DNA of 64,000 bases from an uncultured Gammaproteobacteria bacterium (GCA_964497535.1 CAZCCG010000001.1:194858-258857), one strand, 5' to 3'; shown: positions 7,866-52,064, numbered from the stretch's first letter. Program-made: numbers and translations. The notes: generated by a model from the sequence alone, not told the origin.

Positions 7866-8399
7866 TTATTGGAGTTTGTCAGGAACAAATCTGAGTGCCA
7901 GGGAATTCATACAATATCTTTTGCCGGTAGGCTTGGGTCCGTCATCAAAAACATGCCCCAAGTGCCCGCCGCATTTATCCAGTACTTCAATACGTGTTTC
8001 ACCCAGACTGTTATCTTCCGAAAGTACCACTGCGCCCGGCTGTATTGGAGCCCAGAAGCTGGGCCAGCCGGTACCTGAATCATATTTTTGTTCCGAGCGA
8101 AACACCGGTTCGTTGCATCCCACACTGTAGTATGTTCCTTTGCGTGTCTCATAATCCAGCAGCCCTGAAAAGGGAATTTCAGTACCTGCTTCCCGCAGGA
8201 TATGATACTGATCAGGAGTGAGAATCTTTTTCCACTGAGCATCGGTTTTGAATTTACTCTTGTCAAATGTCCCGGCGATAATCTGGGGAGTGGGCGAAGA
8301 AGTATCAGACGGTTGTGCGGGGGTTTGATGAGTAGCAAGAAAGATGATACCAAGCGTAATCACCACTGCGACAGTAAAAAAAAGGTACGGTCTTTTCAT
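7866..8399 (-). CDS. msrB: peptide-methionine (R)-S-oxide reductase MsrB with N-terminal membrane anchor/signal
   Basis: 177 aa. MsrB core (YSVGCNEPVFRSEQKYDSGTGWPSFWAPI...RIEVLDKCGGHLGHVFDDGPKPTGKRYCMNSLAL) preceded by a hydrophobic N-terminus and a linker. Confidence 0.8.
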   Translation of the reverse strand: MKRPYLFFTVAVVITLGIIFLATHQTPAQPSDTSSPTPQIIAGTFDKSKFKTDAQWKKILTPDQYHILREAGTEIPFSGLLDYETRKGTYYSVGCNEPVFRSEQKYDSGTGWPSFWAPIQPGAVVLSEDNSLGETRIEVLDKCGGHLGHVFDDGPKPTGKRYCMNSLALRFVPDKLQ

Positions 8400-8429
8400 A
8401 CCTATAAGTATACCAAACCTACTTTATTA

Positions 8430-8465
8430 CACACACCCGGTGTGTGGTAGGTAGACACATAAGGG
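8430..8465 (+). repeat. 36-bp palindromic element, copy 1 (CACACACCCGGTGTGTGGTAGGTAGACACATAAGGG)
   Basis: Member of a 5-copy family with consensus GCACACA-yCCGG-TGTGTGC-yAGsTAGACACAT. Lies about 35 nt upstream of the msrB start on the opposite strand. Confidence 0.75.
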
Positions 8466-8517
8466 TTTTAAAAGAAAAAAGGGCAACCCGCTAATAGCGA
8501 ATTGCCCATAAGTGTAG

Positions 8518-8838
8518 TTAGTCTTCCGGGAGCCAGATATTTTCCCATTGCTGGATAGCATCAATCATGGGTAATAAGTCCCTCCCTTTTTCTGTCAGGG
8601 TGTACTGGGTACGGATTGGAGGTGTACTATATACCTGGCGTGAAACAATGCCATACTGTTCCAATTCTTTGAGGCGCTCCGACAGCATGCGCGGACTGAT
8701 TCCTTCTACTATGATCTGGAGTGCGATGAACCCTTGCGGATTGACAAGTGCCCGCAGGATTTGAAACGTCCACCGTTTGCAGATCAGGTCAGCTGCTTGC
8801 TTACAACGCTCTTGAGTATAGTCAAAAGTATAGCTCAT
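8518..8838 (-). CDS. HxlR-type (MarR/DUF24 family) winged-helix transcriptional regulator
   Basis: The track ORF (8518..8922) opens with TTG. The likely ATG start gives MSYTFDYTQERCKQAADLICKRWTFQILRALVNPQGF...RMLSERLKELEQYGIVSRQVY...YTLTEKG, an HxlR signature with a conserved N-terminal Cys. A TATAAT box at about 8905-8915 lies upstream of it on the minus strand. Confidence 0.75.
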   Translation of the reverse strand: MSYTFDYTQERCKQAADLICKRWTFQILRALVNPQGFIALQIIVEGISPRMLSERLKELEQYGIVSRQVYSTPPIRTQYTLTEKGRDLLPMIDAIQQWENIWLPED

Positions 8839-8943
8839 GATCTCTTCCCCTTTGTAACTACTCTGCTCTCGGTACCTGGCACAAATGCCAGTACTCGGTA
8901 ATAACTGAGTATTATACCTCAAAATAAGCCTGAAGAAAAATTA

Positions 8944-8979
8944 GCACACACCGGATGTGTGGTAGCTATAAAAATAAAG
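8944..8979 (+). repeat. 36-bp palindromic element, copy 2 (third arm replaced by the U-tract of a terminator)
   Basis: GCACACACCGGATGTGTGGTAGCTATAAAAATAAAG. Sits immediately upstream of the HxlR-type gene on the minus strand. It abuts the terminator hairpin GCACCCTT..AAGGGTGC of the 9020..9436 gene. Confidence 0.75.
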
Positions 8980-9019
8980 CACCCTTAAGTTTTACCTCAA
9001 GGGTGCGGTGTGCGAAGAC

Positions 9020-9436
9020 CTACTCTTCTGAACTCGCGTTACTCAAGCGTCTCTTGTCTTTTTCTGCTGACTCTCTCCACTGCTTGAGTGCTTCCTCTTG
9101 CGTGAGAGGCAGCACTTCCGACTTATTCTCGGTTTTCCAGAGAATCAGCGTGACACGGTCATTGATTATCAGTTGCAGTCTCCTCGCCTGGGAGCGCTGC
9201 AGGATGATAATCGCCTTGGCAGGTCGGCTGCGGTACGTCTCGACAGAGATAATGTCCAGTGGAACCGCAAGGTAGTCTGCATACTCATTCGCAGCCTGTA
9301 TATCCGCATCAGATCTCAGCACTACGATGCCAATCTGCTTGTCATGGACGGTAGGCATGATCTCATCTCCTATTCCCTCTTGGGATGTTGTATCGCTGCA
9401 ATGAGGGAGTATAGCAAAATAAGATGCAATAATCAA
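9020..9436 (-). CDS. hypothetical protein (within higher-GC island)
   Basis: 138 aa ORF. The start is probably the internal MPTVHDKQIGIVVL. Followed on the minus strand by an intrinsic terminator at 8979-9006. GC about 50% against a local background of about 35%. Confidence 0.4.
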   Translation of the reverse strand: MIIASYFAILPHCSDTTSQEGIGDEIMPTVHDKQIGIVVLRSDADIQAANEYADYLAVPLDIISVETYRSRPAKAIIILQRSQARRLQLIINDRVTLILWKTENKSEVLPLTQEEALKQWRESAEKDKRRLSNASSEE

Positions 9437-9517
9437 ACTATGGGATTAAAAATAAAGTTTTGACTTCCTTTTTTCCTGAGTATATAATCGCACGAGCGTA
9501 GTGAAAGGAGATTTCCT

Positions 9518-9925
9518 GTGGCTGATACCCAAAAGCAGACGGTTGATCCTGAAGAATTCCGGTATCAACTTGCTCAATTGGTAGAAACAGAAGAGTTCCG
9601 ACAGACCTATGCGGATACAGTGGCAGCACTGCTGCAAGATCCGGGGTTTCTGGCATGGTCAGATGCCAAGTACGCGTCTCGAATTGCAGATGCTCGGAAA
9701 GAGCTGGCAGCGTGGTACCGGCGATACTGGAGGCTTGATGAAAAGCTGGCTTTGCTTCTCGCAGCAAATCACAAGTTTCCCTATCAACTCCTGGAGATGA
9801 GCCGCGAAGCGTTACTCGCAATTACGGGGATCACTCCGGTTCAAGTGCAGACGATCCGCCGCTATCGCAGCAGCAACGGCTTGCATCAGCTAGATATGTA
9901 TCTGCTGGTTGACTTGCTCAAGTAG
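9518..9925 (+). CDS. hypothetical protein with C-terminal helix-hairpin-helix (ComEA-like) motif
   Basis: GTG start 7 nt after an AAAGGAG Shine-Dalgarno site. A TTGACT-N17-TATAAT promoter at 9457-9485. C-terminal LLAITGITPVQVQTIRRYR is HhH-like. Higher GC. Confidence 0.45.
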   Translation: MADTQKQTVDPEEFRYQLAQLVETEEFRQTYADTVAALLQDPGFLAWSDAKYASRIADARKELAAWYRRYWRLDEKLALLLAANHKFPYQLLEMSREALLAITGITPVQVQTIRRYRSSNGLHQLDMYLLVDLLK

Positions 9926-10025
9926 CAGATACATCTTGTCCTGTGGCGGTCGAGTCAGACTCGATCGCCACTTTTACTTCATCTTTATGAATAAACAAAT
10001 CCGGTTAGTGTTATAGTATAGTTAT

Positions 10026-10235
10026 ATGTTGATAGCTCAAATTTCTCCTGGTCCGGCTGATTTTAGCAAGTTGAAACCACAACCTTTTCCAACTGAATCA
10101 ATACTGCATTTTACCGGAGCATTCTTTGGAGTATGGATTGGCATGCTTCTGGTAGCTCTATTAATAGCAGGTGTAATTACTCTTATAATTTTAGGATTCC
10201 TCAAACTTTCCTCCAAGAATAAAAAGAAGAAATAA
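10026..10235 (+). CDS. small membrane protein with poly-Lys tail
   Basis: 69 aa with one long hydrophobic stretch, then SSKNKKKK. Weak call. Confidence 0.3.
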   Translation: MLIAQISPGPADFSKLKPQPFPTESILHFTGAFFGVWIGMLLVALLIAGVITLIILGFLKLSSKNKKKK

Positions 10236-10279
10236 TTGTAATTTCAAAACTACCGAAAGAAGCGTATAATATTCCATTT

Positions 10280-10315
10280 GCACACACCCGGTGTGTGCCA
10301 GCTAGACACCTAAGG
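10280..10315 (+). repeat. 36-bp palindromic element, copy 3
   Basis: GCACACACCCGGTGTGTGCCAGCTAGACACCTAAGG in an intergenic region between the higher-GC module and the restriction-modification module. Confidence 0.75.
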
Positions 10316-10433
10316 AAATCTGCTTTCAAAATAACCATTCCCGGCGTATAATAGGCTCAAGTGAAACTAAAAGACTTGCCCACCTTTCAATTTCCATAAG
10401 AAACATATAAGTTTAAATATTTTTTATAAAGAT

Positions 10434-11156
10434 ATGAACGAAAGTCAAAAAAAAGAAATACTAAATAAATTTAAAGAATTTTTCGAGACAACAATTGCTG
10501 TTAACCATCTCAAGAATTTGAATAAATTAACAAAGTTAACAGCCTTTGAATATAACCCATTTCTCTTTATTTATCTCGCTAAATTTTTAACAGGTACTAG
10601 TGATTCACAAAGTTTAGCAAAAATTTTAATTTATCCAAGAATTCTCGGAACATCAATTACTACTAGTTTTGGACAGAATTTACAAAATGCTGCCCCCAAA
10701 CTATTTCAATCAGTATTGGGGTCAACAACATCAGGAATCGACTTGGAATTCATAGACCAAGTTGATAAAAGGAAAAAATATTGTCAAATTAAATCTGGAC
10801 CAAATACTATAAACAAAGATGATGTTGAAACTATTTCAAATCATTTTAAAGGTGTAAGAGGAATAGCCCGCATTAATAACGTTCAAGTGGGATTAGATGA
10901 TTTAGTAGTTGGTGTTTTGTTTGGTACAGAAAAACAGTTGAACGGAAATTATAAAAAAGTTATGCAACAACACACTGTTTTCGTTGGAAAAGAGTTCTGG
11001 TATAGATTAACAGGTGATGAAGGGTTTTACGCTGATCTTATTAAAGCATTCGGAGATGCTGCAATAAAGACAAACGGAAAAGCTACGCTTGAAAGAGTTG
11101 TTAATGCTCTATCAATAGATATTGAAATAAATTTTATAAATAAGGAATTAAAATAA
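10434..11156 (+). CDS. putative type II restriction endonuclease (PD-(D/E)xK-like), partner of the adjacent C5 methyltransferase
   Basis: 240 aa. Candidate catalytic segment GIDLEFIDQVDKRKKYCQIKSG. Sits immediately upstream of a Dcm-type methyltransferase on the same strand. No recognisable housekeeping family. Confidence 0.4.
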   Translation: MNESQKKEILNKFKEFFETTIAVNHLKNLNKLTKLTAFEYNPFLFIYLAKFLTGTSDSQSLAKILIYPRILGTSITTSFGQNLQNAAPKLFQSVLGSTTSGIDLEFIDQVDKRKKYCQIKSGPNTINKDDVETISNHFKGVRGIARINNVQVGLDDLVVGVLFGTEKQLNGNYKKVMQQHTVFVGKEFWYRLTGDEGFYADLIKAFGDAAIKTNGKATLERVVNALSIDIEINFINKELK

Positions 11157-11199
11157 TGTTTTAGTAGAAATAATCATAGTTCTATATAGTAAATAACCA

Positions 11200-12516
11200 T
11201 TGCATAATGTATTGGTTACTATCCATAATAGAGATATGGATAGTAAAAATCTTCTTACCGTTTCAGATGCTGCAAAACAACTGAATGTATCTCCAGATAC
11301 AATTCGTAGATGGGAGAAAAAAGGGCTAATTAGAGGAATACGATCCGAACATAATTATCGTCTTTTTAGTTTGAATGAACTGAAACGTATCTATAATAAA
11401 ACCCAAGGAACTTCACAAGAAAATAACTACAAAATTCTTAAAACAAAGAAAAAAACTAAATATACATGTATAGAACTTTTTGCGGGAACTGGTGGTACCG
11501 CGTTAGGACTCGAACATGCAGGGCTTCAACATGTTCTACTTAACGAGTTCGATAAAAATTGTGTTGCAACCCTTAGAAGAAATAGGCCAAAGTGGAATGT
11601 ATTACATGAGGATGTTTCAAAAGTTGATTTCAAGAGATGGAAAGGGAAAGTAGATATTGTTCAGGGAGGTTTTCCATGTCAAGCATTTAGTTATGCAGGG
11701 AAAAAACTTGGTTTTGAAGATACAAGAGGGACATTATTCTATGAATTCGCGCGTTGCATAAAAGAAGTACGACCCAAAATAGCAATGGGAGAAAATGTAA
11801 GAGGATTACTTACTCATGAAAATGGAGAAACATTGAAAGCAATGACTCAAATTTTAGATGAATTAGGATATAACGTAACTTACAAGGTGGTAAAAGCACA
11901 ATATTTAGATGTACCACAAAAAAGGGAAAGATTGATAATAATTGGAGTTAGAAAAGATTTAAATATCCCCTTTATTTTTCCAAAAGAAAAAGATTATACA
12001 ATTTCGCTTCGTGAAGCATTGAAAAACGTTCCCAAGTCTTCAGGTCAAGAATATCCTGAAAAAAAGAAAAAGATTATGAAACTTATTCCACCAGGAGGTT
12101 ACTGGAAGGATTTAATACCAAAGTTGCAAAAAGAATATATGGGTGCCAGTTATTATATGGGTGGTGGAAAGACAGGAATGGCACGAAGATTATCGTGGGA
12201 CGAACCAAGTCTTACTCTGACATGCGCTCCTGCCCAAAAACAAACAGAACGATGTCATCCAGAAGAGACGAGACCATTAACTGTTCGAGAATACGCTCGT
12301 ATACAGACATTTCCTGATGAATGGGAGTTTGTCGGTTCTACAGCGTCACAATATAAACAAATAGGCAACGCGGTACCAGTAAATTTAGGGTATCATATGG
12401 GACGGTGTTTAATTGTAATGTTAGATGGAGTAAAACAAGCAGAAAATATGGATGTGATTAAGGAATTTAAAGAAAATAACCCATCAGTATACAACCCTGC
12501 TTCATTTTCTTTATAA
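11200..12516 (+). CDS. DNA (cytosine-5)-methyltransferase with N-terminal MerR/excisionase-type HTH (SsoII/MspI-like regulatory methyltransferase architecture)
   Basis: Motif I FAGTGG, motif IV PCQ (GFPCQAFSYAGK), motif VI ENV (GENVRGL), motif VIII QKRERLIIIG, and C-terminal GNAVP. N-terminal HTH TVSDAAKQLNVSPDTIRRWEKKGLI. The start may be the internal MDSKNLL. Confidence 0.85.
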   Translation: MHNVLVTIHNRDMDSKNLLTVSDAAKQLNVSPDTIRRWEKKGLIRGIRSEHNYRLFSLNELKRIYNKTQGTSQENNYKILKTKKKTKYTCIELFAGTGGTALGLEHAGLQHVLLNEFDKNCVATLRRNRPKWNVLHEDVSKVDFKRWKGKVDIVQGGFPCQAFSYAGKKLGFEDTRGTLFYEFARCIKEVRPKIAMGENVRGLLTHENGETLKAMTQILDELGYNVTYKVVKAQYLDVPQKRERLIIIGVRKDLNIPFIFPKEKDYTISLREALKNVPKSSGQEYPEKKKKIMKLIPPGGYWKDLIPKLQKEYMGASYYMGGGKTGMARRLSWDEPSLTLTCAPAQKQTERCHPEETRPLTVREYARIQTFPDEWEFVGSTASQYKQIGNAVPVNLGYHMGRCLIVMLDGVKQAENMDVIKEFKENNPSVYNPASFSL

Positions 12517-12789
12517 TTTTTTCTTTTTTGGTTTGGAGACTTCTTTGTAGCGAGCGATAACAATTAAGATTATAACGAGAATAAAAAGTATAATTGTAAT
12601 CTCACCGGCAATAATACTTGGATCCGCTCCGATAGTCCATAAATCTTTAGCGAACCATAAAAGTACAATTAAAGAGAAACCAATAATAAACCATCTGGGT
12701 GATCTGCCTTTTCCACCCCAATAGTCAAGGTCAAAATAGTTTTCATAGCCCAATAAGAATTCTTTAATTGAATTTTTCTTCTTGGCCAT
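12511..12789 (-). CDS. small two-TM membrane protein with Lys-rich C-terminus
   Basis: 92 aa. Two hydrophobic helices and a KPKKKKL tail. Copy 4 of the 36-bp element lies about 60 nt upstream of its start on the opposite strand. Confidence 0.45.
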   Translation of the reverse strand: MAKKKNSIKEFLLGYENYFDLDYWGGKGRSPRWFIIGFSLIVLLWFAKDLWTIGADPSIIAGEITIILFILVIILIVIARYKEVSKPKKKKL

Positions 12790-12848
12790 AGGCCTATCAT
12801 ATCATTTATCAATGGTATAAGTTAGCTGTTAGTAGTTATCTATTTGAC

Positions 12849-12886
12849 TGCACACATCCGGTTTGTGTGGCTAAAAGTTGACATAC
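12849..12886 (+). repeat. 36-bp palindromic element, copy 4 (variant with GTTTGTGTGG arm)
   Basis: TGCACACATCCGGTTTGTGTGGCTAAAAGTTGACATAC. Followed by a TTGACA-N17-TATTTT promoter for the downstream PUR-like gene. Confidence 0.7.
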
Positions 12887-13002: not shown

Positions 13003-13233
13003 ATGACAGCAGGTAAGAGTATAAAGATAGAGTCCTCACATGTACGGTTCGGTAGACGGACCTACTTCTTCGATATCAATCAGTCAAAAAACGAGAAAAA
13101 ATATCTCAAAATTACCGAGTCCCAATTTATGGGCGAGGGAAAAGAACGGGTATATAATTCTTTCGTTTTGTTCCCTGATGATGTGAAAGAGTTCCAAAAG
13201 ACTCTCTTGGAGATAGCGGGACATCTTGCATAA
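13003..13233 (+). CDS. bacterial PUR-alpha-like nucleic-acid-binding protein (DUF3276 family)
   Basis: 76 aa. VRFGRRTYFFDINQSKNEKKYLKITESQ...FVLFPDDVKEFQKTL matches the PUR repeat seen in Bacteroidetes and Borrelia Pur-like proteins. Classical promoter and a roughly 90 nt 5' UTR with a small hairpin. Confidence 0.6.
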   Translation: MTAGKSIKIESSHVRFGRRTYFFDINQSKNEKKYLKITESQFMGEGKERVYNSFVLFPDDVKEFQKTLLEIAGHLA

Positions 13234-44928: not shown

Positions 44929-46677
44929 TTAGCGTCGGAACATGGTATTGATTATAGAAAGAGGCATTTGGATTTGGGTAGGGCGTCCATGAGGACAGGT
45001 AGCATTATTTTTTGTTTTTTGTAATTGTTCAACCAGATTTACTGCTTGTTTTTCTGTTACGCTATCACCGGCTTTTATAGCGGCACGGCAGGATAGATAG
45101 GCGAGCATGCGTTGTGATTTACTATCAATAGTTTTTGGCCCGGTATCTATTGCCAAATCATCGAGTATATCTTTTACTATTTTTTCAATATTTCTCCCCT
45201 TATAAATGAAAGGAACAGTTCGGATCATAAAGCTTGATCCTTGAAAATGTTCCAGTTCAAATCCAAGTTGTCTAAAAAGGTCTCCATATTCTTCCAAAAG
45301 TTGCAATTCCAAAACCGAAGCATGAAATTGGACTGGTTTTTCCAACTGATATAGTTCCTTTTTTTTCTTTTCAAAGGTTGTTACAAACTGTTCATACAAA
45401 ATTCGTTCATGGGCAGCATGCTGATCAATCAATAAGAACCCTTGTGCCGTTGGCGCGAAAAGATAGGTACTATGGATCTGGATAACTGGTAATTTTTTTG
45501 ACAATTGTATTGAATCTTGCCTATTCCAGGGTAAAACAGTTTCTTTTAATAGTTGACCGGAAAATGATTGTGTTTCGCTTGTTTTTGCAGAGGTAGTTTG
45601 TTTGAATTGTGCAAGATTAAAAGTAAGGTTGTGTTTGGCCAACGTTTGAAGAGTAGCAGCTTTTACCGCATCAAAGATTTTGGTTTCGTTTATAAATGTC
45701 ACATGCACTTTTTGGGGGTGTACATTCACATCAACCATCTCGTGAGGGAGGGTTATATGAAAATGAAAGAGTGGAGTGCTTGAAGCAGGAAGTAATGTTG
45801 CGAAGGCCTGTTTGATGATCGAAGAGATTGCCTTATCAGTAACAAAACGATTATTTATAAAAAGATATTGTTTTTGGTTCTGTTTGGAAGCAATTTGAGG
45901 TTTTCCTAAAAAACCTGAAATTGTAATATACCCATCTTTATACATAATTGGTATAAGATTTTGAAAGATAGTTTCACCAAATACTAAGCGAATACGATTC
46001 TCAAGAGTTTCTTTTTGGGGAATATCTAAAATGACCTTTTTATTATGAGTCAATACAAAATGGACAGAAGGATACGAAAGCGCATAGCGCATGACAATAT
46101 CGGTGAGAAGACGAAATTCTGTTTTCGAGCTTTTAAGAAATTTTTTTCGGGCCGGGACAGAATGAAATAAATTTTCAACCGTTACAATTGTTCCCGGCGG
46201 AGTCCCGATTGGTGCGATTTTTTCTAGTATTCCGTTTCGTATCTCAATGAGTGTCCCGGCGGGGTTATCTCTCGTACGGCTTTTGATAGAAAGATATGAA
46301 ATAGCAGCAATTGAGGAGAGTGCTTCTCCCCGAAAACCCAATGTTTTAATACCGACAAGTTCATCCTCGCGGGTAATTTTACTGGTTGTATGAGGCAAAA
46401 ATGAAAGCCCCAGATCTTCATGGCTCATCCCTTCCCCATTGTCCACTACGACAATTTTGCGTAGTCCTGATTCCTCAATAGCAATTTGTATGAGAGAGGC
46501 ATTTGCATCAAGTGCATTTTCCACCAGTTCCTTTACTGCATACGCCGGTCGTTCAATGACTTCACCGGCAGCAATTTTGGAGATAATAGATTGTGGTAGT
46601 AGTTTTATTTTAGCCATATCCTTTTTTCTTTCCCCATCAAGGAGAAGTAAAATGGTGAAGAAATAATAGTATATCAA
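44929..46677 (-). CDS. mutL: DNA mismatch repair protein MutL
   Basis: GHKL ATPase motifs (KELVENALDA, GFRGEAL). The likely start is the internal MAKIKLLPQ. Confidence 0.9.
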   Translation of the reverse strand: MIYYYFFTILLLLDGERKKDMAKIKLLPQSIISKIAAGEVIERPAYAVKELVENALDANASLIQIAIEESGLRKIVVVDNGEGMSHEDLGLSFLPHTTSKITREDELVGIKTLGFRGEALSSIAAISYLSIKSRTRDNPAGTLIEIRNGILEKIAPIGTPPGTIVTVENLFHSVPARKKFLKSSKTEFRLLTDIVMRYALSYPSVHFVLTHNKKVILDIPQKETLENRIRLVFGETIFQNLIPIMYKDGYITISGFLGKPQIASKQNQKQYLFINNRFVTDKAISSIIKQAFATLLPASSTPLFHFHITLPHEMVDVNVHPQKVHVTFINETKIFDAVKAATLQTLAKHNLTFNLAQFKQTTSAKTSETQSFSGQLLKETVLPWNRQDSIQLSKKLPVIQIHSTYLFAPTAQGFLLIDQHAAHERILYEQFVTTFEKKKKELYQLEKPVQFHASVLELQLLEEYGDLFRQLGFELEHFQGSSFMIRTVPFIYKGRNIEKIVKDILDDLAIDTGPKTIDSKSQRMLAYLSCRAAIKAGDSVTEKQAVNLVEQLQKTKNNATCPHGRPTQIQMPLSIINTMFRR

Positions 46678-46692
46678 AGCGAAGAATACAAT

Positions 46693-47139
46693 CTATTTAT
46701 AAACAATCTTGACTCCTGTATTTATCATTGCTTTTATTAATTGTTGAAAACTACAATATTGAGAGTTTCCTTGTGAGGGATCGTGATAGTAAATCATTCC
46801 ATTTTCGAATCTATACAGTAAAACCGAATGGAGACCTTTTTTTCCTGGATATACATGATGCAGCCTAATTGATGTTTGGATCAAGTTTCCTTGTTCAAGG
46901 AATTGTTTGATTTCGTCTTCCATCAAGTTTTTATAAATAGCAGTATCTAATCCGTATTCTTTCGCAAGTTCTGCAATTGATGTATTCAATATATTTTTAA
47001 ACTTTTTACCATATTCCTTTTCAACTTTTTGAGTCAACTCTTCTTCTGTGACATCATTATTGTTTGATGCTAAAACCATACGAAGAACTGCAAGCGAGCA
47101 GGTATAAGCCTGTTCTTGCTTGAAATAGGGAGGAATCAT
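46693..47139 (-). CDS. standalone papain-like C39-type peptidase domain protein
   Basis: 148 aa. QEQAYTCSLAVLRMVL is a catalytic Cys motif (Q...C...A...M.L). There is a His downstream. Confidence 0.55.
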   Translation of the reverse strand: MIPPYFKQEQAYTCSLAVLRMVLASNNNDVTEEELTQKVEKEYGKKFKNILNTSIAELAKEYGLDTAIYKNLMEDEIKQFLEQGNLIQTSIRLHHVYPGKKGLHSVLLYRFENGMIYYHDPSQGNSQYCSFQQLIKAMINTGVKIVYK

Positions 47140-47158
47140 GAGAGAATTATAGCAGGAC

Positions 47159-47503
47159 TTATTGCACTGGTTCCCAGCTGTGTCCTAATTCGCAGAGTTT
47201 GAGCCAAACCTTAACATCACCAATATTAGGTAATTTTTTCATTATAAAACGCATAACATTGAGGCAGATTTCGTCTTGTCTTTTTATTCGTTCTGAAAAC
47301 GCGTGGGCAGTAATTTCCAGCTCTACATCTCCAATCATTTCACCTCCTGATATATGGAGAAACCTTATACTGATTTCTTGCTGTGTAAGTTTGATATCAC
47401 CACAACTCAATTCATCAACAAGATATTCTTTTAAATCTTTAATAAGTTTATTTAACTCTTTTTCTTGATTAGCTTTTGCGTAATAAATATTAACTGTCGG
47501 CAT
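47159..47503 (-). CDS. tautomerase-superfamily-like protein (N-terminal Pro after Met; CHMI/MIF-like)
   Basis: 114 aa, MPTVNIYY. Leaderless: TATAAT lies 8 nt before the ATG. Copy 5 of the 36-bp element lies about 50 nt upstream. Confidence 0.35.
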   Translation of the reverse strand: MPTVNIYYAKANQEKELNKLIKDLKEYLVDELSCGDIKLTQQEISIRFLHISGGEMIGDVELEITAHAFSERIKRQDEICLNVMRFIMKKLPNIGDVKVWLKLCELGHSWEPVQ

Positions 47504-47541
47504 AACTACATTATATCAAAAATGATTGTACACATCAGGTT

Positions 47542-47577
47542 GCACACATCCGGTGTGTGCTAGGTAGACACATCGGG
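47542..47577 (+). repeat. 36-bp palindromic element, copy 5
   Basis: GCACACATCCGGTGTGTGCTAGGTAGACACATCGGG. About 35 kb from the other four copies, on the same strand. Confidence 0.75.
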
Positions 47578-47579
47578 AT

Positions 47580-48161
47580 TTATCCTTTTGTTGTTTTCCT
47601 AGAGAGCTTTGGTCTGATAATTAAAAGGACCATACAAAGATTAATAATCATAATATAAATTGGGTAGGATGATTGTTGAATATTCCAACTGGTGAGTGCA
47701 AGAAGACTAAATATGGCAGCACAGACATCGAGTAGATAAAAACTCCATACTTCGGTATCCGGAAAATGAAACGTTTTAAGTAGTGCCGGAATCATGCCGG
47801 TAAAATCTGCAGCTATGGCGCAGTAGAGCGCAATGATAGGGTTATTGGTTGTTTTCCATAAAATTATGCCCACTAGAGCAATACCCAGGCAGACCAGGTC
47901 CATTTTTGCCCATCCTCCCATTCCGAATTTAATACTTAAAGTAAATACGATGATTGATTGAAGTGTGGAAACTGCTGCAAGCCAAATAGCTACCGTATCA
48001 TGGGCTGCAAACAGAGACGCTGTCGTAAGACTGGTAATAAGTAATAAAACAAAACGGGTAGTACGGTGAGGTTTTGCATTTCCTTTTAAAATTGCTTGTG
48101 CATATACGAAGGGAGAAATCAAAGCAAGAATGCTGCTAACGATAATAAAGCTTTGTTGCAT
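47580..48161 (-). CDS. polytopic membrane protein (6 TM)
   Basis: 193 aa and hydrophobic. Confidence 0.45.
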   Translation of the reverse strand: MQQSFIIVSSILALISPFVYAQAILKGNAKPHRTTRFVLLLITSLTTASLFAAHDTVAIWLAAVSTLQSIIVFTLSIKFGMGGWAKMDLVCLGIALVGIILWKTTNNPIIALYCAIAADFTGMIPALLKTFHFPDTEVWSFYLLDVCAAIFSLLALTSWNIQQSSYPIYIMIINLCMVLLIIRPKLSRKTTKG

Positions 48162-48181
48162 GTAGAGAGATTATAGCAGGG

Positions 48182-48319
48182 TTACATTTTTTTGTGCTTG
48201 AAGAATTCTACCTGGCGAAGTCGTTTTTTTGCTTCTTCTTCTGTTTTATAAGGTCCACCAAGGTTGCGTTTGGTTTTTTCAGAGAGGACATAATAGCCGT
48301 CTTTTTTCTTTACTATCAT
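48182..48319 (-). CDS. unannotated 45-aa ORF (MIVKKKDGYYVLSEKTKRNLGGPYKTEEEAKKRLRQVEFFKHKKM), translationally coupled to the acyltransferase gene
   Basis: ATGA stop/start overlap with the upstream gene 48316..49383. Not in the ORF track. Confidence 0.45.
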   Translation of the reverse strand: MIVKKKDGYYVLSEKTKRNLGGPYKTEEEAKKRLRQVEFFKHKKM

Positions 48320-49383
48320 ACTTTTTTATTATATCTGACAAGTCTTTTTTTCCGCAAGCGGTCTACCGGACGTTCGACAACAAAAATGAGTAGACATGAT
48401 GCAGCTAGTACGATAATAATAAGAAAAAGTATAGACCATGAATTTTTGTTAAGAAAGGGAATATTATTGAACAATTTTATAAAGAAGATATGAGAAATAT
48501 AAATCGGGTAAGATAGTTCTCCAATGAAAAGATCAACGACATGATTTTTACTCAACAGAAAAATAAATGGTAGTAATCCGACAAGTCCGAGATAATAAGG
48601 AATATCATATGCGTTAAAAAATGAAGAAGTAATCTTGAATGGAATAAAATTATATGCCAGCAGATACAGTATGAGCGAAGTAAATAGTGTTATCAATAAA
48701 GCTCGTGGTAATTTCAAGTTTTTGAGTTTTTTGTAGAGGCGATAACTTATCATTCCCAATAAGAAATAAAGGAAATAGTAAAAAAAGATATAGGTGAGAG
48801 AAAGAGTATTGAATATATGATTGGGTATAATAAATCCATACACAATAATGATTTCTCCTACTATAAATAGCCAAAATAACCGGGAGGGCAAACGCATGAT
48901 AAATGGAACAATGAGATAAAAAATAAGTTCCAGTTGCAATGTCCATGCTTGTTGTATCAACAGATATCCGGGGCTATAAGATCCGGGATTTATATAATCT
49001 GTTGTAAAAATCAATGTGATATTACGCAAAATAAAATTAAGCAGATCAACTATAAATAATAGTGGAGATGTATTGGGATAATAATGAAGGTAATGAATAA
49101 TGGCATTATCGGGAGTTCCCGCATGGAAAAAATACTTTACCAGAGAAAACAATAATAATAATACAAGCATTGTCCAATACAAGGGAAAGATTCGTAAAAA
49201 TCTGTTACTTATAAAAAGCCAATATGATTTATATTTCCCCTCCAAAACCAAAGACATGTAAAACCCTGAGATAATAAAAAATGAACAAACGGCAAGTTGT
49301 TGATTCAGAAGATTAAATCCAAAGATACCATTGGTATGAGCGGTAACAATACTAAAAGCAAAAAGCACACGTAGAAGACCCAT
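48316..49383 (-). CDS. acyltransferase family 3 (OafA-like) membrane O-acyltransferase
   Basis: 355 aa, 10 TM. N-terminal VLFAFSIVTAHT...FFIISGFYMS. Confidence 0.8.
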   Translation of the reverse strand: MGLLRVLFAFSIVTAHTNGIFGFNLLNQQLAVCSFFIISGFYMSLVLEGKYKSYWLFISNRFLRIFPLYWTMLVLLLLFSLVKYFFHAGTPDNAIIHYLHYYPNTSPLLFIVDLLNFILRNITLIFTTDYINPGSYSPGYLLIQQAWTLQLELIFYLIVPFIMRLPSRLFWLFIVGEIIIVYGFIIPNHIFNTLSLTYIFFYYFLYFLLGMISYRLYKKLKNLKLPRALLITLFTSLILYLLAYNFIPFKITSSFFNAYDIPYYLGLVGLLPFIFLLSKNHVVDLFIGELSYPIYISHIFFIKLFNNIPFLNKNSWSILFLIIIVLAASCLLIFVVERPVDRLRKKRLVRYNKKV

Positions 49384-49406
49384 CGGTTATCAGTATACTA
49401 CAACAA

Positions 49407-52064
49407 TTAATCAATCGTTATTTTTTGAGTTTCTACACTATAGAGTTTGAGTTTGTCCTTGAGCTTGGCAAGTGTATTAAGTGCTTCAAGCGGTGTCATA
49501 TTGCCAATATCCAGAGCCTGAATTTCTTTCAAAAGAATATGATCCATGATTGTTGTATCTGGTATTTCGTATGTCGTATTTTGTTCCTTTTGTCTCTCTT
49601 CAGAATATATTTTTTCTTCTTTAACATCCCGTAATTCAAGTGTTTGAAGCATCTCATATGCTTTTTCAATAACCGATTCTGGTATCCCTGCAAGTTTTGC
49701 CACTGCTACACCAAAACTATGGGAGGCACCCCCGGGTAGTAATGTATGCAAAAATACAGGTTCTCCGCTATCTTCTATAACTGCCATATGGAAATTTTTA
49801 ATATAGTGGGGATATTGTTCTTCTAATGTTTGTAGTTCATGATAGTGTGTTGCAAAAAGAGTTTTAGGAGAAGGATGTATTGTGGTTACTAAATACTCTG
49901 CAACTGCCCAAGCAATTGAAATGCCATCATAGGTGCTGGTTCCCCTGCCAATTTCATCCATGACAATAAGAGAATTTTTTGTGGCGTTATGGAGAATATG
50001 TGCAGTTTCAACCATCTCAACCATAAATGTTGAAAGACCTGATGTTATTACATCCGAAGCGCCTGAGCGTACAAATATCTGATCGCAAATACTAATCTGA
50101 GCACTTTGAGCCGGCACAAAACATCCCATTTGCGCCATCAGGATTATTATTGCTACTTGTCTAATAAATACCGATTTTCCTGCCATGTTAGGACCTGTTA
50201 TTACAAGAAGCTGTTGATTGGAATTGTCCAACCATACATCATTGGGTACAAAGGGAGTCTCATCCAGGAGTTTTTCCACAACAGGATGTCTACCTTGCAT
50301 GATTCGTATTTCTCCTAAAGTTTGGATGGTAGGGCGGGTATACTGTTGTTTTTGGGAAAGAAAGGCAAAGTTTGAGATACAATCCAAAACAGCAATACTT
50401 TCGGCTGCATCCTGAATTTTGGCGGTATATGTTAAGACATAGTTGAGTACATCACAAAACAGTGTATATTCAAGCTCATTTATTTTTTCTTCAGCAGTCA
50501 AGATAATTTCTTCATGGGCTTTGAGTTCTTTTGTCACAAACCGTTCACCGTTTACCAAGGTCTGTTTTCGTTGATAAAAATCCGGTACTAAATGGAGATT
50601 TGTATTGGAAATTTCAATGTAGAATCCAAAGACTTTATTATATCTAACTTTCAAAGATCCAATACCAGTTTTTTCTTTTTCTGATTTTTCCAGCTCTATA
50701 ATCCACGATTTATTTTTTCCAATAATAGATCGTAATTTATCCAGTGTTTTAGAAACACCAGGTTGTATCATACGTCCTTCCCGAGTAACAATCGGGGGTT
50801 CATCAACAATCATAGTATCGATGTAGGAGACAACTTTTTTTAAATCTGTAGCTATATTTTTAGACTGTCTTTTCAAAAGTGCAGAATCAGCATCCTGAAG
50901 TAGCAGTTTTGTTTGGAGGATAGTTTGGAGTGCATTTTTTAGATTTACCAGATCCCGGGCATTGCCTAGATTAAGGGATAATCGTGATAAAATCCGTTCA
51001 ATATCAGGAATTTGTTTGAGCTGGTCTCGTAGTATGTGGGTAGTTGAAGATTTATCCAGGAAATACGCAAGTGCATCAAGCCGTTTTTCAATTGTTTCTT
51101 TTTCTATCAACGGTTTTTTTATCCATTGTTTTAATAATCGTCCTCCCATAGGTGTTATTGTTTGGTCGAGGATCGATAAGAGAGACCCTCGTGTGTCATG
51201 ATCTCTGATCGTTGAAAAAAGCTCTAAGTTGATTATTGTAGAACGGTCCAGTACCAGTCCATCTTCTGATTTTAGTGAAGATATTTTTTTAATGTGTGAA
51301 ACAGTTCCTTTTTGTGTTTCCTTCAGATATCCCAACAGTGCCGCTGCAGATTGCTGCGCTAATAGTTGCGTGATAATATCAAAGCTTTCCAGTGTGGTGA
51401 GATGAAAGTGTTTTTTTAGAACTTTGGTGGCATCCGACGTATAGATATTCCAATCTGAAAAAGGAAAAATATTCATATTTTTTTCTACAGCCAATAACTT
51501 TAAAAATCGGGTATCATTGTAGAGATCTTGGGGTAGAATACATTCTGATGGGTGAAGTTTGGATAATTCTTCCTGCAATACGGTTTGTAGGTCGGTGTAG
51601 GCCATTTGAGTAGCTGCAAAATATCCTGTCGATAAATCAGCTGCAGCAATTGCCAGTATGCCATTCTCAATACAGACACTAATAATGTAATTATTTTCTT
51701 TTTTGCTCAAAACATTTTCATCCAGTAGTGTTCCCGGGGTAACAATTCGTACCACATCCCGTTCTACAAGACCCTTTTTATTTGGGGGAGAAAGTTGTTC
51801 ACAGATTGCTACTTTATATCCTGCTTTTACCAGTTTGGTCAGATAGGTATCTGCCGCATGATAGGGGACACCAGCCATAGGGATTTTCCCATCTTTTCCT
51901 CCTGATTTACTGGTAAGAGTAATATTGAGAACTTGTGCACCGATATGAGCATCTTCCATAAAAAGTTCATAGAAGTCTCCCATACGATAAAAAAGTAAAC
52001 AATCGGGATATTGTTTTTTTATCTCTCGATACTGCTTCATCATGGGGGTTGAGAAATCATTCAT
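49407..52064 (-). CDS. mutS: DNA mismatch repair protein MutS
   Basis: 885 aa. MMKQYREIK..., Walker A GPNMAGKS. Confidence 0.9.
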   Translation of the reverse strand: MNDFSTPMMKQYREIKKQYPDCLLFYRMGDFYELFMEDAHIGAQVLNITLTSKSGGKDGKIPMAGVPYHAADTYLTKLVKAGYKVAICEQLSPPNKKGLVERDVVRIVTPGTLLDENVLSKKENNYIISVCIENGILAIAAADLSTGYFAATQMAYTDLQTVLQEELSKLHPSECILPQDLYNDTRFLKLLAVEKNMNIFPFSDWNIYTSDATKVLKKHFHLTTLESFDIITQLLAQQSAAALLGYLKETQKGTVSHIKKISSLKSEDGLVLDRSTIINLELFSTIRDHDTRGSLLSILDQTITPMGGRLLKQWIKKPLIEKETIEKRLDALAYFLDKSSTTHILRDQLKQIPDIERILSRLSLNLGNARDLVNLKNALQTILQTKLLLQDADSALLKRQSKNIATDLKKVVSYIDTMIVDEPPIVTREGRMIQPGVSKTLDKLRSIIGKNKSWIIELEKSEKEKTGIGSLKVRYNKVFGFYIEISNTNLHLVPDFYQRKQTLVNGERFVTKELKAHEEIILTAEEKINELEYTLFCDVLNYVLTYTAKIQDAAESIAVLDCISNFAFLSQKQQYTRPTIQTLGEIRIMQGRHPVVEKLLDETPFVPNDVWLDNSNQQLLVITGPNMAGKSVFIRQVAIIILMAQMGCFVPAQSAQISICDQIFVRSGASDVITSGLSTFMVEMVETAHILHNATKNSLIVMDEIGRGTSTYDGISIAWAVAEYLVTTIHPSPKTLFATHYHELQTLEEQYPHYIKNFHMAVIEDSGEPVFLHTLLPGGASHSFGVAVAKLAGIPESVIEKAYEMLQTLELRDVKEEKIYSEERQKEQNTTYEIPDTTIMDHILLKEIQALDIGNMTPLEALNTLAKLKDKLKLYSVETQKITID

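Follow-up and report, generated by a model that had tools for sequence, protein, structure and literature searches.

Five palindromic elements in a 64-kb bacterial sequence are probably dispersed copies of the terminal inverted repeat of a Y1/HUH transposase of Patescibacteria

The 64,000-nucleotide stretch of DNA analysed here (the window; GCA_964497535.1, CAZCCG010000001.1:194858-258857), deposited as part of the genome of an uncultured Gammaproteobacteria bacterium, contains five copies of a palindromic element. A first-pass annotation, made by a model from the sequence alone, had proposed that the element is an operator for an adjacent HxlR/DUF24 regulator, or a recombination or module-boundary site. 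The core is a 19-bp near-perfect 9-1-9 palindrome, GCACACAYCCGGTGTGTGC, which with up to three mismatches occurs five times in the window, at 8429, 8944, 10280, 12850 and 47542, and gave no matches in 100 dinucleotide-preserving shuffles. A profile hidden Markov model (HMM) constructed from 25 elements from other genomes, with the window sequence excluded, returned these five sites and nothing besides when run over the 64 kb with nhmmer, and the + strand gave the best score for all five (E = 5.7e-15, 7e-14, 2.7e-12, 2.7e-5 and 0.1). All five copies are intergenic. Pattern match, shuffles and an independent HMM thus bear out the number, places and intergenic setting of the copies as originally described.

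Three copies are full elements, and only in these is the hairpin followed by the conserved tail TAGSTAGACAC (at 8448, 10299 and 47561). The element at 8427-8470 (+ strand; E = 7e-14) consists of hairpin ACACACACCCGGTGTGTGG (8429-8447) and tail TAGGTAGACACATAAGG, of the TAGACA or right-end type described below, and is positioned between the terminator of hxlR (8507-8481, - strand) and the -10/ATG of msrB. The hxlR gene (8518-8838, -) encodes an HxlR-family regulator of 106 amino acids (aa), and msrB (7866-8399, -) encodes MsrB (SelR). The element at 10277-10321 (+; E = 2.7e-12), with a perfect hairpin GCACACACCCGGTGTGTGC (10280-10298) and tail CAGCTAGACACCTAAGGA, separates a + strand gene encoding 69 aa (stop at 10235) from restriction-modification genes that begin at 10434. 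The element at 47539-47586 (+; E = 5.7e-15), with hairpin GCACACATCCGGTGTGTGC (47542-47560) and tail TAGGTAGACACATCGGGATTT, lies within the mutS-mutL interval, between a gene for a 193-aa membrane protein (stop at 47580, -) and a gene for a 114-aa protein with no Pfam match (47159-47503, -, with its start at 47503). The remaining two copies are incomplete. The copy at 8941-8968 is truncated, with hairpin GCACACACCGGATGTGTGG (8944-8962) followed by TAGCTA, beyond which the tail is replaced by the T-run of a - strand terminator (9006-8979); both this copy and copy 8429 are preceded by a - strand terminator. The copy at 12847-12883 (+; E = 0.1) is degenerate, with hairpin GCACACATCCGGTTTGTGT (12850-12868) and TTTGTGT, and then, after a 5-nt shift, a tail-like AAAGTTGACATAC that includes TTGACA. 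It is located between the divergent genes for a 92-aa membrane protein (12511-12789, -, with its start at 12789) and a DUF3276 protein (13003-13233, +).

The same orientation had been assigned to all five copies, and the + strand is indeed the better HMM match throughout, but the assignment is secure for only three; copy 8944 scores 20.2 bits on the + strand and 17.7 bits on the - strand, and copy 12850 is likewise weak. The copies had also been placed 30-70 nt upstream of a minus-strand gene start or TATAAT box. This is so for copies 8429 (30 nt from the msrB ATG), 12850 (61 nt) and 47542 (39 nt). For copy 8944 the distances are 106 nt to the ATG of hxlR and 27 nt to the -10 of that gene, and copy 10280 is 45 nt downstream of the 69-aa + strand gene, not upstream of a minus-strand gene.

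As first drawn, the element had 36 bp and three pairing arms, with arm 2 able to pair with either arm 1 or arm 3 in mutually exclusive helices. The third arm is present in three copies, truncated in copy 8944 and degenerate in copy 12850. The arm 1/arm 2 hairpin is the minimum-free-energy single-stranded DNA fold in every window copy, with that of copy 12850 being weak (z = -0.35). Across 28 aligned copies, pairing in this hairpin reaches 95.6%, the closing pair changes between U-A and G-C, one internal pair has a double change, and the covariation score was reached by none of 500 shuffles. Pairing in the arm 2/arm 3 helix is 87.5% and does not stand out from the shuffles (343 of 500); this helix was set aside as an alternative that can pair yet is without covariation. 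The three arms are real, with signs of selection in the arm 1/arm 2 helix only.

Related genomes had been named among the places to search for the consensus, and the motif proved to be widespread in genomes of the candidate phyla radiation (CPR). A scan of a genome collection, with one genome per species, for the 17-mer CACACAYCCGGTGTGTG identified at least 114 loci. Among the matches listed, about two-thirds are in CPR genomes (Beckwith-, Ames-, Gottesman-, Curtiss- and Daviesbacteria, CPR2, WWE3, Saccharibacteria and Parcubacteria), and several assemblies have multiple loci, with single assemblies yielding at least 7-8. The tail is conserved well beyond the window as ...GTGTGTG-nTAGGTWGACACMTCGGGAATT. 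At the low-GC loci listed, 69 of 89 copies lie outside open reading frames (ORFs) of at least 120 aa, though such ORFs occupy 83% of the DNA. In high-GC genomes among the matches listed, 28 of 33 copies are inside ORFs; these matches (Streptomyces, Planctomycetes and others), being mostly within ORFs or in unrelated hairpins, were taken as unrelated. A metagenome scan with the hairpin-plus-tail pattern GGTGTGTGNTAGGTWGACAC added 77 loci. In one CPR group (L041, L047, L055, L074, L095, L099 and L109) the element runs on into a longer conserved unit, ...GGGAATTAWTTCGATCCTGGAAATGAAAATCCAAAAAACGATCCAGGATCGTGATTATCC, with a second hairpin. None of 2.9 million viral contigs scanned contained a match, and a phage-borne element was rejected on that basis.

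The distribution of the element is patchy. In three relatives of the window organism (MutS 69-75% identical) there is no copy across ~55 kb, including the interval that corresponds to mutS-mutL (44929-52064 in the window; L128-L130). This interval varies among the relatives, with zero to five inserted genes that include those for an acyltransferase, a C39-like peptidase and DUF559. Logan short-read contigs from the same organism (L115-L117 and L123-L124) stop in, or no more than ~20 nt from, copies 8429 and 47542, as is expected of a repeat, and this suggests that there are further copies elsewhere in the genome.

When ORFs at a distance of up to 1.5 kb from the motif were all clustered without bias, a single recurrent CPR neighbour emerged, a protein of ~225 aa with the motifs YHV.NR, MPNHFHFLL and RYIHLNP, in which YH, MPxHxH (the HUH motif) and RYIHLNP are invariant. 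It scores 39.7 bits against Pfam Y1_Tnp (cut-off 23), and its best NCBIfam model is that for the repetitive extragenic palindrome (REP)-associated tyrosine transposase, or RAYT (REP_Tyr_transpos). The solved structure closest to its profile is 4ER8, the E. coli TnpArep (E = 5e-4), in an alignment that brings the HUH and Tyr motifs together, and the second-best match in the PDB is ISDra2 TnpA. The palindrome flanks the transposase gene on both sides, within ~10-30 nt, and such inverted copies around a Y1 gene are present at L001, L005, L018, L038, L048, L078 and L122 and at 18 metagenome loci. The protein has 7,697 homologues at E <= 1e-10, with those that are named from Beckwith-, Woese- and Levybacteria. 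As a reciprocal test, four homologues were chosen by protein sequence and examined together with their flanks. The flanking palindrome is CACACACCCGGTGTGTG where the protein is 70% identical to the L005 transposase (L122), CACACCTCTAAGGTGTG where it is 61% identical (L121), and (C)CACCTCTAAGGTG(G), with the core also written CCACCTCTAAGGTGG, where it is 55-56% identical (L118 and L120). More distant homologues (L104, L108 and L072; ~30-40% identical) have unrelated palindromes. The sequence of the repeat changes, that is, along with the transposase lineage. The gene order secF-transposase-cca is kept in four genomes, which indicates that the transposase gene is single-copy and vertically inherited.

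The structure of the transposase unit identifies arm 3. A transposase gene is directly beside the element at 18 of the 77 metagenome loci, and in 13-14 of these the element begins 3-50 nt past the stop codon with the tail gene-proximal and the hairpin outside. This right-end layout is stop codon, ccttaTGTGTCTACCTAn-CACACACCSGGTGTG, and the inverted partner upstream of the same genes has the form hairpin-nTAGCTTGACAC. In all 12 of 12 upstream copies TTGACA is followed, after 16-18 nt, by a TAnnnT-like hexamer that resembles a -10 box and, 5-12 nt further on, by the ATG. Hairpin and tail together form a unit of ~36-45 nt that is inverted at the two ends of the gene, and arm 3 is the inner part of this terminal inverted repeat (TIR). 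Judged by its sequence and spacing, the left-end TTGACA tail appears to lie where the transposase promoter would have its -35 box. Solo, dispersed copies are of both kinds, 35 with a TAGACA-type and 17 with a TTGACA-type tail. Copies 8429, 10280 and 47542 conform nearly base-for-base to the right-end (TAGACA) type, as exemplified by GTAGGTAGACACATAAGG in the window, which matches CTAGGTAGACACATAAGG of the right-end form in L151.

The five window copies are thus very probably dispersed repeats of the TIR of a Y1/HUH transposase in Patescibacteria (CPR), of the REP/RAYT 'REPtron/TIRtron' type; this is a known kind of system and the CPR family is a new one. A complete unit, as seen in other genomes, consists of a single-copy gene for a ~225-aa Y1 (HUH) transposase of the RAYT kind with, on each side, an outer 17-19-bp hairpin CACACACCSGGTGTGTG and an inner tail of ~18 nt, nTAGSTWGACACMTMRGG. 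At the left end the TTGACA tail is at the predicted -35 position of the transposase promoter, and at the right end the TAGACA tail abuts the stop codon. By analogy with RAYT and IS200/IS605 enzymes, the hairpin presumably arises in single-stranded DNA, where the transposase binds it, and cleavage of DNA near the hairpin would then allow solo copies to spread in trans into intergenic DNA (PMC3479197, PMC6006769). The window organism's own transposase gene must be located outside the 64 kb, unless it has been lost. Most simply, the window copies are passengers in intergenic DNA, just past terminators and upstream of promoters. A generic REP or MITE (a miniature transposable element with inverted repeats) unrelated to the regulator, which the first-pass annotation had set against its own operator proposal, is in essence what emerged.

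Several points weigh against this assignment. The window has no Y1 transposase gene (tblastn, E up to 10), so a transposase gene within it was rejected and the link to the transposase is by homology to other genomes; the copies either rely on a gene located in another part of the genome or are relics. The secF-cca site, at which the transposase resides in Beckwithbacteria-like genomes, is also not in the window. The NCBIfam score of the ~225-aa protein, 59.7 bits, is below the equivalog cut-off of 80, and binding, cleavage and mobility are properties that we infer from RAYT and IS200/IS605 enzymes. The window copies are clustered, five in 64 kb with four of these within 4.5 kb. All are on the + strand, on which the GC skew of the window is uniformly positive, but a crude test for replication-strand bias showed no correlation of orientation with local GC skew (9 loci concordant and 10 discordant among 21 loci, with RAYT-flank and GC-rich loci omitted). 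The same 17-mer is common to several candidate phyla, and classical REPs are usually lineage-specific. The element is also without the unpaired 5′ GT(A/G)G head of REPs and has a variable 5′ flank; the A-type tail alone contains GTAG, 4 nt away from the stem. Lastly, the CPR copies are singlets, and do not form the REP doublets (REPINs) or bacterial interspersed mosaic elements seen with REPs. Neighbouring pairs of copies are always direct, both in the window and at L055, L074, L110, L131, L148, L162 and L185.

The closest known systems are units of REPs with a RAYT gene ('REPtrons'), as exemplified by E. coli REP/TnpArep (YafM, PDB 4ER8) and Pseudomonas REPIN-RAYT (PMC2817692, PMC3116915, PMC3479197, PMC5581495). 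In common with these, the CPR family has short, hairpin-forming extragenic repeats, a single-copy Y1/HUH gene between two inverted copies, a repeat that co-varies with the transposase lineage, a transposase in conserved gene order, and a protein for which TnpArep is the closest match of solved structure. A hairpin, a flanked single-copy Y1 gene, co-variation and synteny are the defining properties of RAYT/REP units (PMC2817692, PMC5581495). The CPR element differs, beyond the features noted above, in having a conserved ~18-nt tail on the gene-proximal side of the hairpin (3′ tail nTAGGTWGACAC), in a protein that is longer (~225 aa versus the 165 residues of the 4ER8 chain) and below the NCBIfam RAYT cut-off, and in its CPR/Patescibacteria hosts, with one core common to several candidate phyla. 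In TIRtrons, genes for TIR-associated tyrosine transposases (TIRYTs) lie within longer TIRs, which are in some cases partly self-complementary, and solo copies are moderately abundant (Di Nocera et al. 2013, PMC3733652). The CPR unit similarly has a partly self-complementary inverted repeat of ~36-45 nt that bounds a Y1 gene, and belongs to a moderately abundant dispersed family that is found mainly between unidirectional genes. Its sequence is, however, unrelated to the GGGGWSAS motif of those TIRs, its hosts are outside the survey of Di Nocera et al. (PMC3733652), and the inner part of its left repeat doubles as a predicted -35 box. The 'TIRtron' category of Di Nocera et al. suits this anatomy best. 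We found no description of such a repeat-transposase system in CPR in the searchable literature.

Insertion sequences of the IS200/IS605 group are multi-copy, and the hairpins at their two ends share one orientation on a single strand. Like IS608, ISDra2 and their transposase-less derivatives, the CPR unit has a Y1/HUH enzyme and subterminal hairpins recognised as single-stranded DNA. Its ends, however, are inverted, and its single-copy gene is syntenic (secF-cca order in four genomes); an IS200/IS605 element or MITE was set aside on these grounds. The core GTTRRRY of integron attC sites is not visible in the element consensus.

The genes around the first four copies form a GC mosaic (7866-12789) in a window that averages 38.9% GC. 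The block from msrB to orf9518 (msrB, hxlR and two ORFs without known function) has 47-52% GC, and the restriction-modification genes together with the 92-aa gene have 30-35% GC, which suggests that these are modules acquired horizontally. The restriction-modification system comprises an EcoO109I-family restriction enzyme (10434-11156, +) and a C5 cytosine methyltransferase (11200-12516, +) with a MerR-type helix-turn-helix domain at its N-terminus, a fusion that may constitute a self-regulating methyltransferase. EcoO109I recognises RGGNCCY, not CCGG. A link between the element and this system through the central CCGG was rejected, as the nuclease belongs to the Pfam EcoO109I family and the motif is widespread without the system; the MerR-fused methyltransferase was rejected as the element-binding protein, also because the motif is widespread without a restriction-modification system. 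The best named matches of the window MutS, 63-67% identical, are from Patescibacteria/CPR and place the organism there. At the minus-strand starts 8399, 12789 and 47503 a TATAAT-like box is present just 6-7 nt before the ATG (TATACT-tataggt-ATG, TATGAT-aggcct-ATG and TATAAT-gtagtt-ATG). This distance suggests leaderless mRNAs, and a similarly short box-to-ATG layout also occurs at the CPR transposase genes.

Direct solo copies could, beyond this, be the boundaries of gene cassettes mobilised or captured by the Y1 transposase, in an integron-like system for CPR defence and addiction genes, although we regard this as unlikely. In the related IS200/IS605 systems, the enzyme excises the single-stranded segment between two like-oriented hairpin ends. 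In the window, the segments between direct copies hold hxlR, a three-gene block and the EcoO109I-like restriction-modification system. At other loci a BrnT/BrnA-like toxin-antitoxin pair (L148 567-1385/L186) and a pair of small ORFs (L131 9444-10080/L160) lie between direct copies, with the repeated unit in L131 reaching 88 nt at 93% identity. That all multi-copy loci have their copies in direct orientation, that the bracketed modules are of foreign composition and that their genes are accessory is no more than suggestive. A filled and empty site pair, or a second genomic context for any cassette, was not found among these loci; two apparent pairs of loci that share a cassette proved to be the same genomic region, and a 55-nt indel that distinguishes L148 from L186 is located outside the element. 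The original suggestion of a recombination or module-boundary site therefore pointed in the right direction, in that the element is by homology the terminal repeat of a Y1/HUH transposase and direct copies bracket foreign modules; a module-boundary role itself is no more than a possibility.

A different view is that the element is a duplex site for a CPR-wide regulator of nearby promoters, possibly a domesticated Y1 protein for which the flanks of its own gene are autoregulatory. This is decidedly improbable, even though the hairpin directly abuts the TTGACA -35 box at the transposase unit (12 of 12), RAYTs are single-copy and vertically inherited (PMC5581495; here the secF-cca synteny), and the window copies are near promoters. 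Arrays of extra half-sites at 11-12 bp spacing, present in L055 and L085, would also suit a regulator. The genes that neighbour the copies share no common function, however, and matching promoters in relatives are without copies. Copies are also present after terminators and between convergent genes, and the unit has a second copy past the transposase stop codon, where no promoter is expected.

The proposal that the element is the operator of the adjacent HxlR/DUF24 protein, which would then control a small redox/electrophile regulon (msrB, hxlR, a tautomerase-like gene and a membrane protein), is very improbable, and the distribution of the element largely refutes it. A 9-1-9 palindrome fits a dimeric winged-helix protein, and copies lie 16-48 nt upstream of minus-strand -10-like boxes, including those of hxlR and msrB. 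The spacing to the -10 is, however, irregular (16, 27, 26 and ~48 nt), and copy 10280 precedes no minus-strand gene. Co-occurrence with an HxlR-type gene had been named as the test of the proposal, and there is none among the 191 motif-bearing loci of other organisms: homologues of HxlR, MsrB and the tautomerase-like protein are absent from the 114 genome loci listed, there even in a search relaxed to E<5, and from the 77 metagenome loci. None of the proteins neighbouring the window copies has a homologue in the motif-bearing genome loci listed. The motif spans CPR phyla, whereas the window HxlR is an orphan, forming a single-member cluster without a close relative in a collection of 5.8 billion proteins. 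Its nearest homologues are no more than 55% identical, with those that are named from Chloroflexota-type organisms, and the motif was not found at three loci with the nearest HxlR homologues (63-68% GC). A different inverted repeat, TACTC-N10-GAGTA at 8892-8911, abuts the hxlR -10 (TATAAT, ~8913-8918, read on the - strand) and is a better candidate than the element for an autoregulatory operator of HxlR. The locus of an HxlR homologue, L125, has TAGTACCTA-N8-TAGGTACTA upstream of the HxlR gene. The element resembles HxlR/DUF24 operators (YodB, HypR and QsrR type) as a palindrome near redox-gene promoters with a copy upstream of the regulator gene, but is never beside HxlR genes at the 191 other loci and has a sequence that differs from the TACT/AGTA-type inverted repeats adjacent to hxlR in the window and in L125. 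A conserved operator is, for practical purposes, excluded because the relatives lack the element across the ~55 kb that includes the mutS-mutL interval.

That the element is a structured RNA, as an attenuator, small RNA or stabilising 3′ hairpin with two alternative helices, is barely credible, since although Y at position 8 retains a G-U pair on the + strand and two mutually exclusive helices can be drawn, Rfam has no match to the element (on which ground a known RNA family was also rejected), the alternative helix has no covariation, the hairpin is not followed by a T-run, copies are found in both orientations relative to the genes beside them, and the element forms inverted DNA repeats on the two sides of a transposase gene.

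Identification of the element as a probable transposase TIR disposes of a false lead: the palindrome is not the operator of a redox regulon, and a regulon inferred from it would be wrong. In practical terms, such repeats interrupt the assembly of CPR genomes from short reads and are markers of variable regions acquired horizontally. If the cassette proposal were true, it would represent a new route of gene mobility in CPR bacteria. For the family itself, the results document a REP/RAYT-type partnership of repeat and transposase in the small genomes of the CPR, with a terminal repeat in which the inner part seems to be the promoter of the transposase gene and a hairpin that is unusually conserved across candidate phyla.

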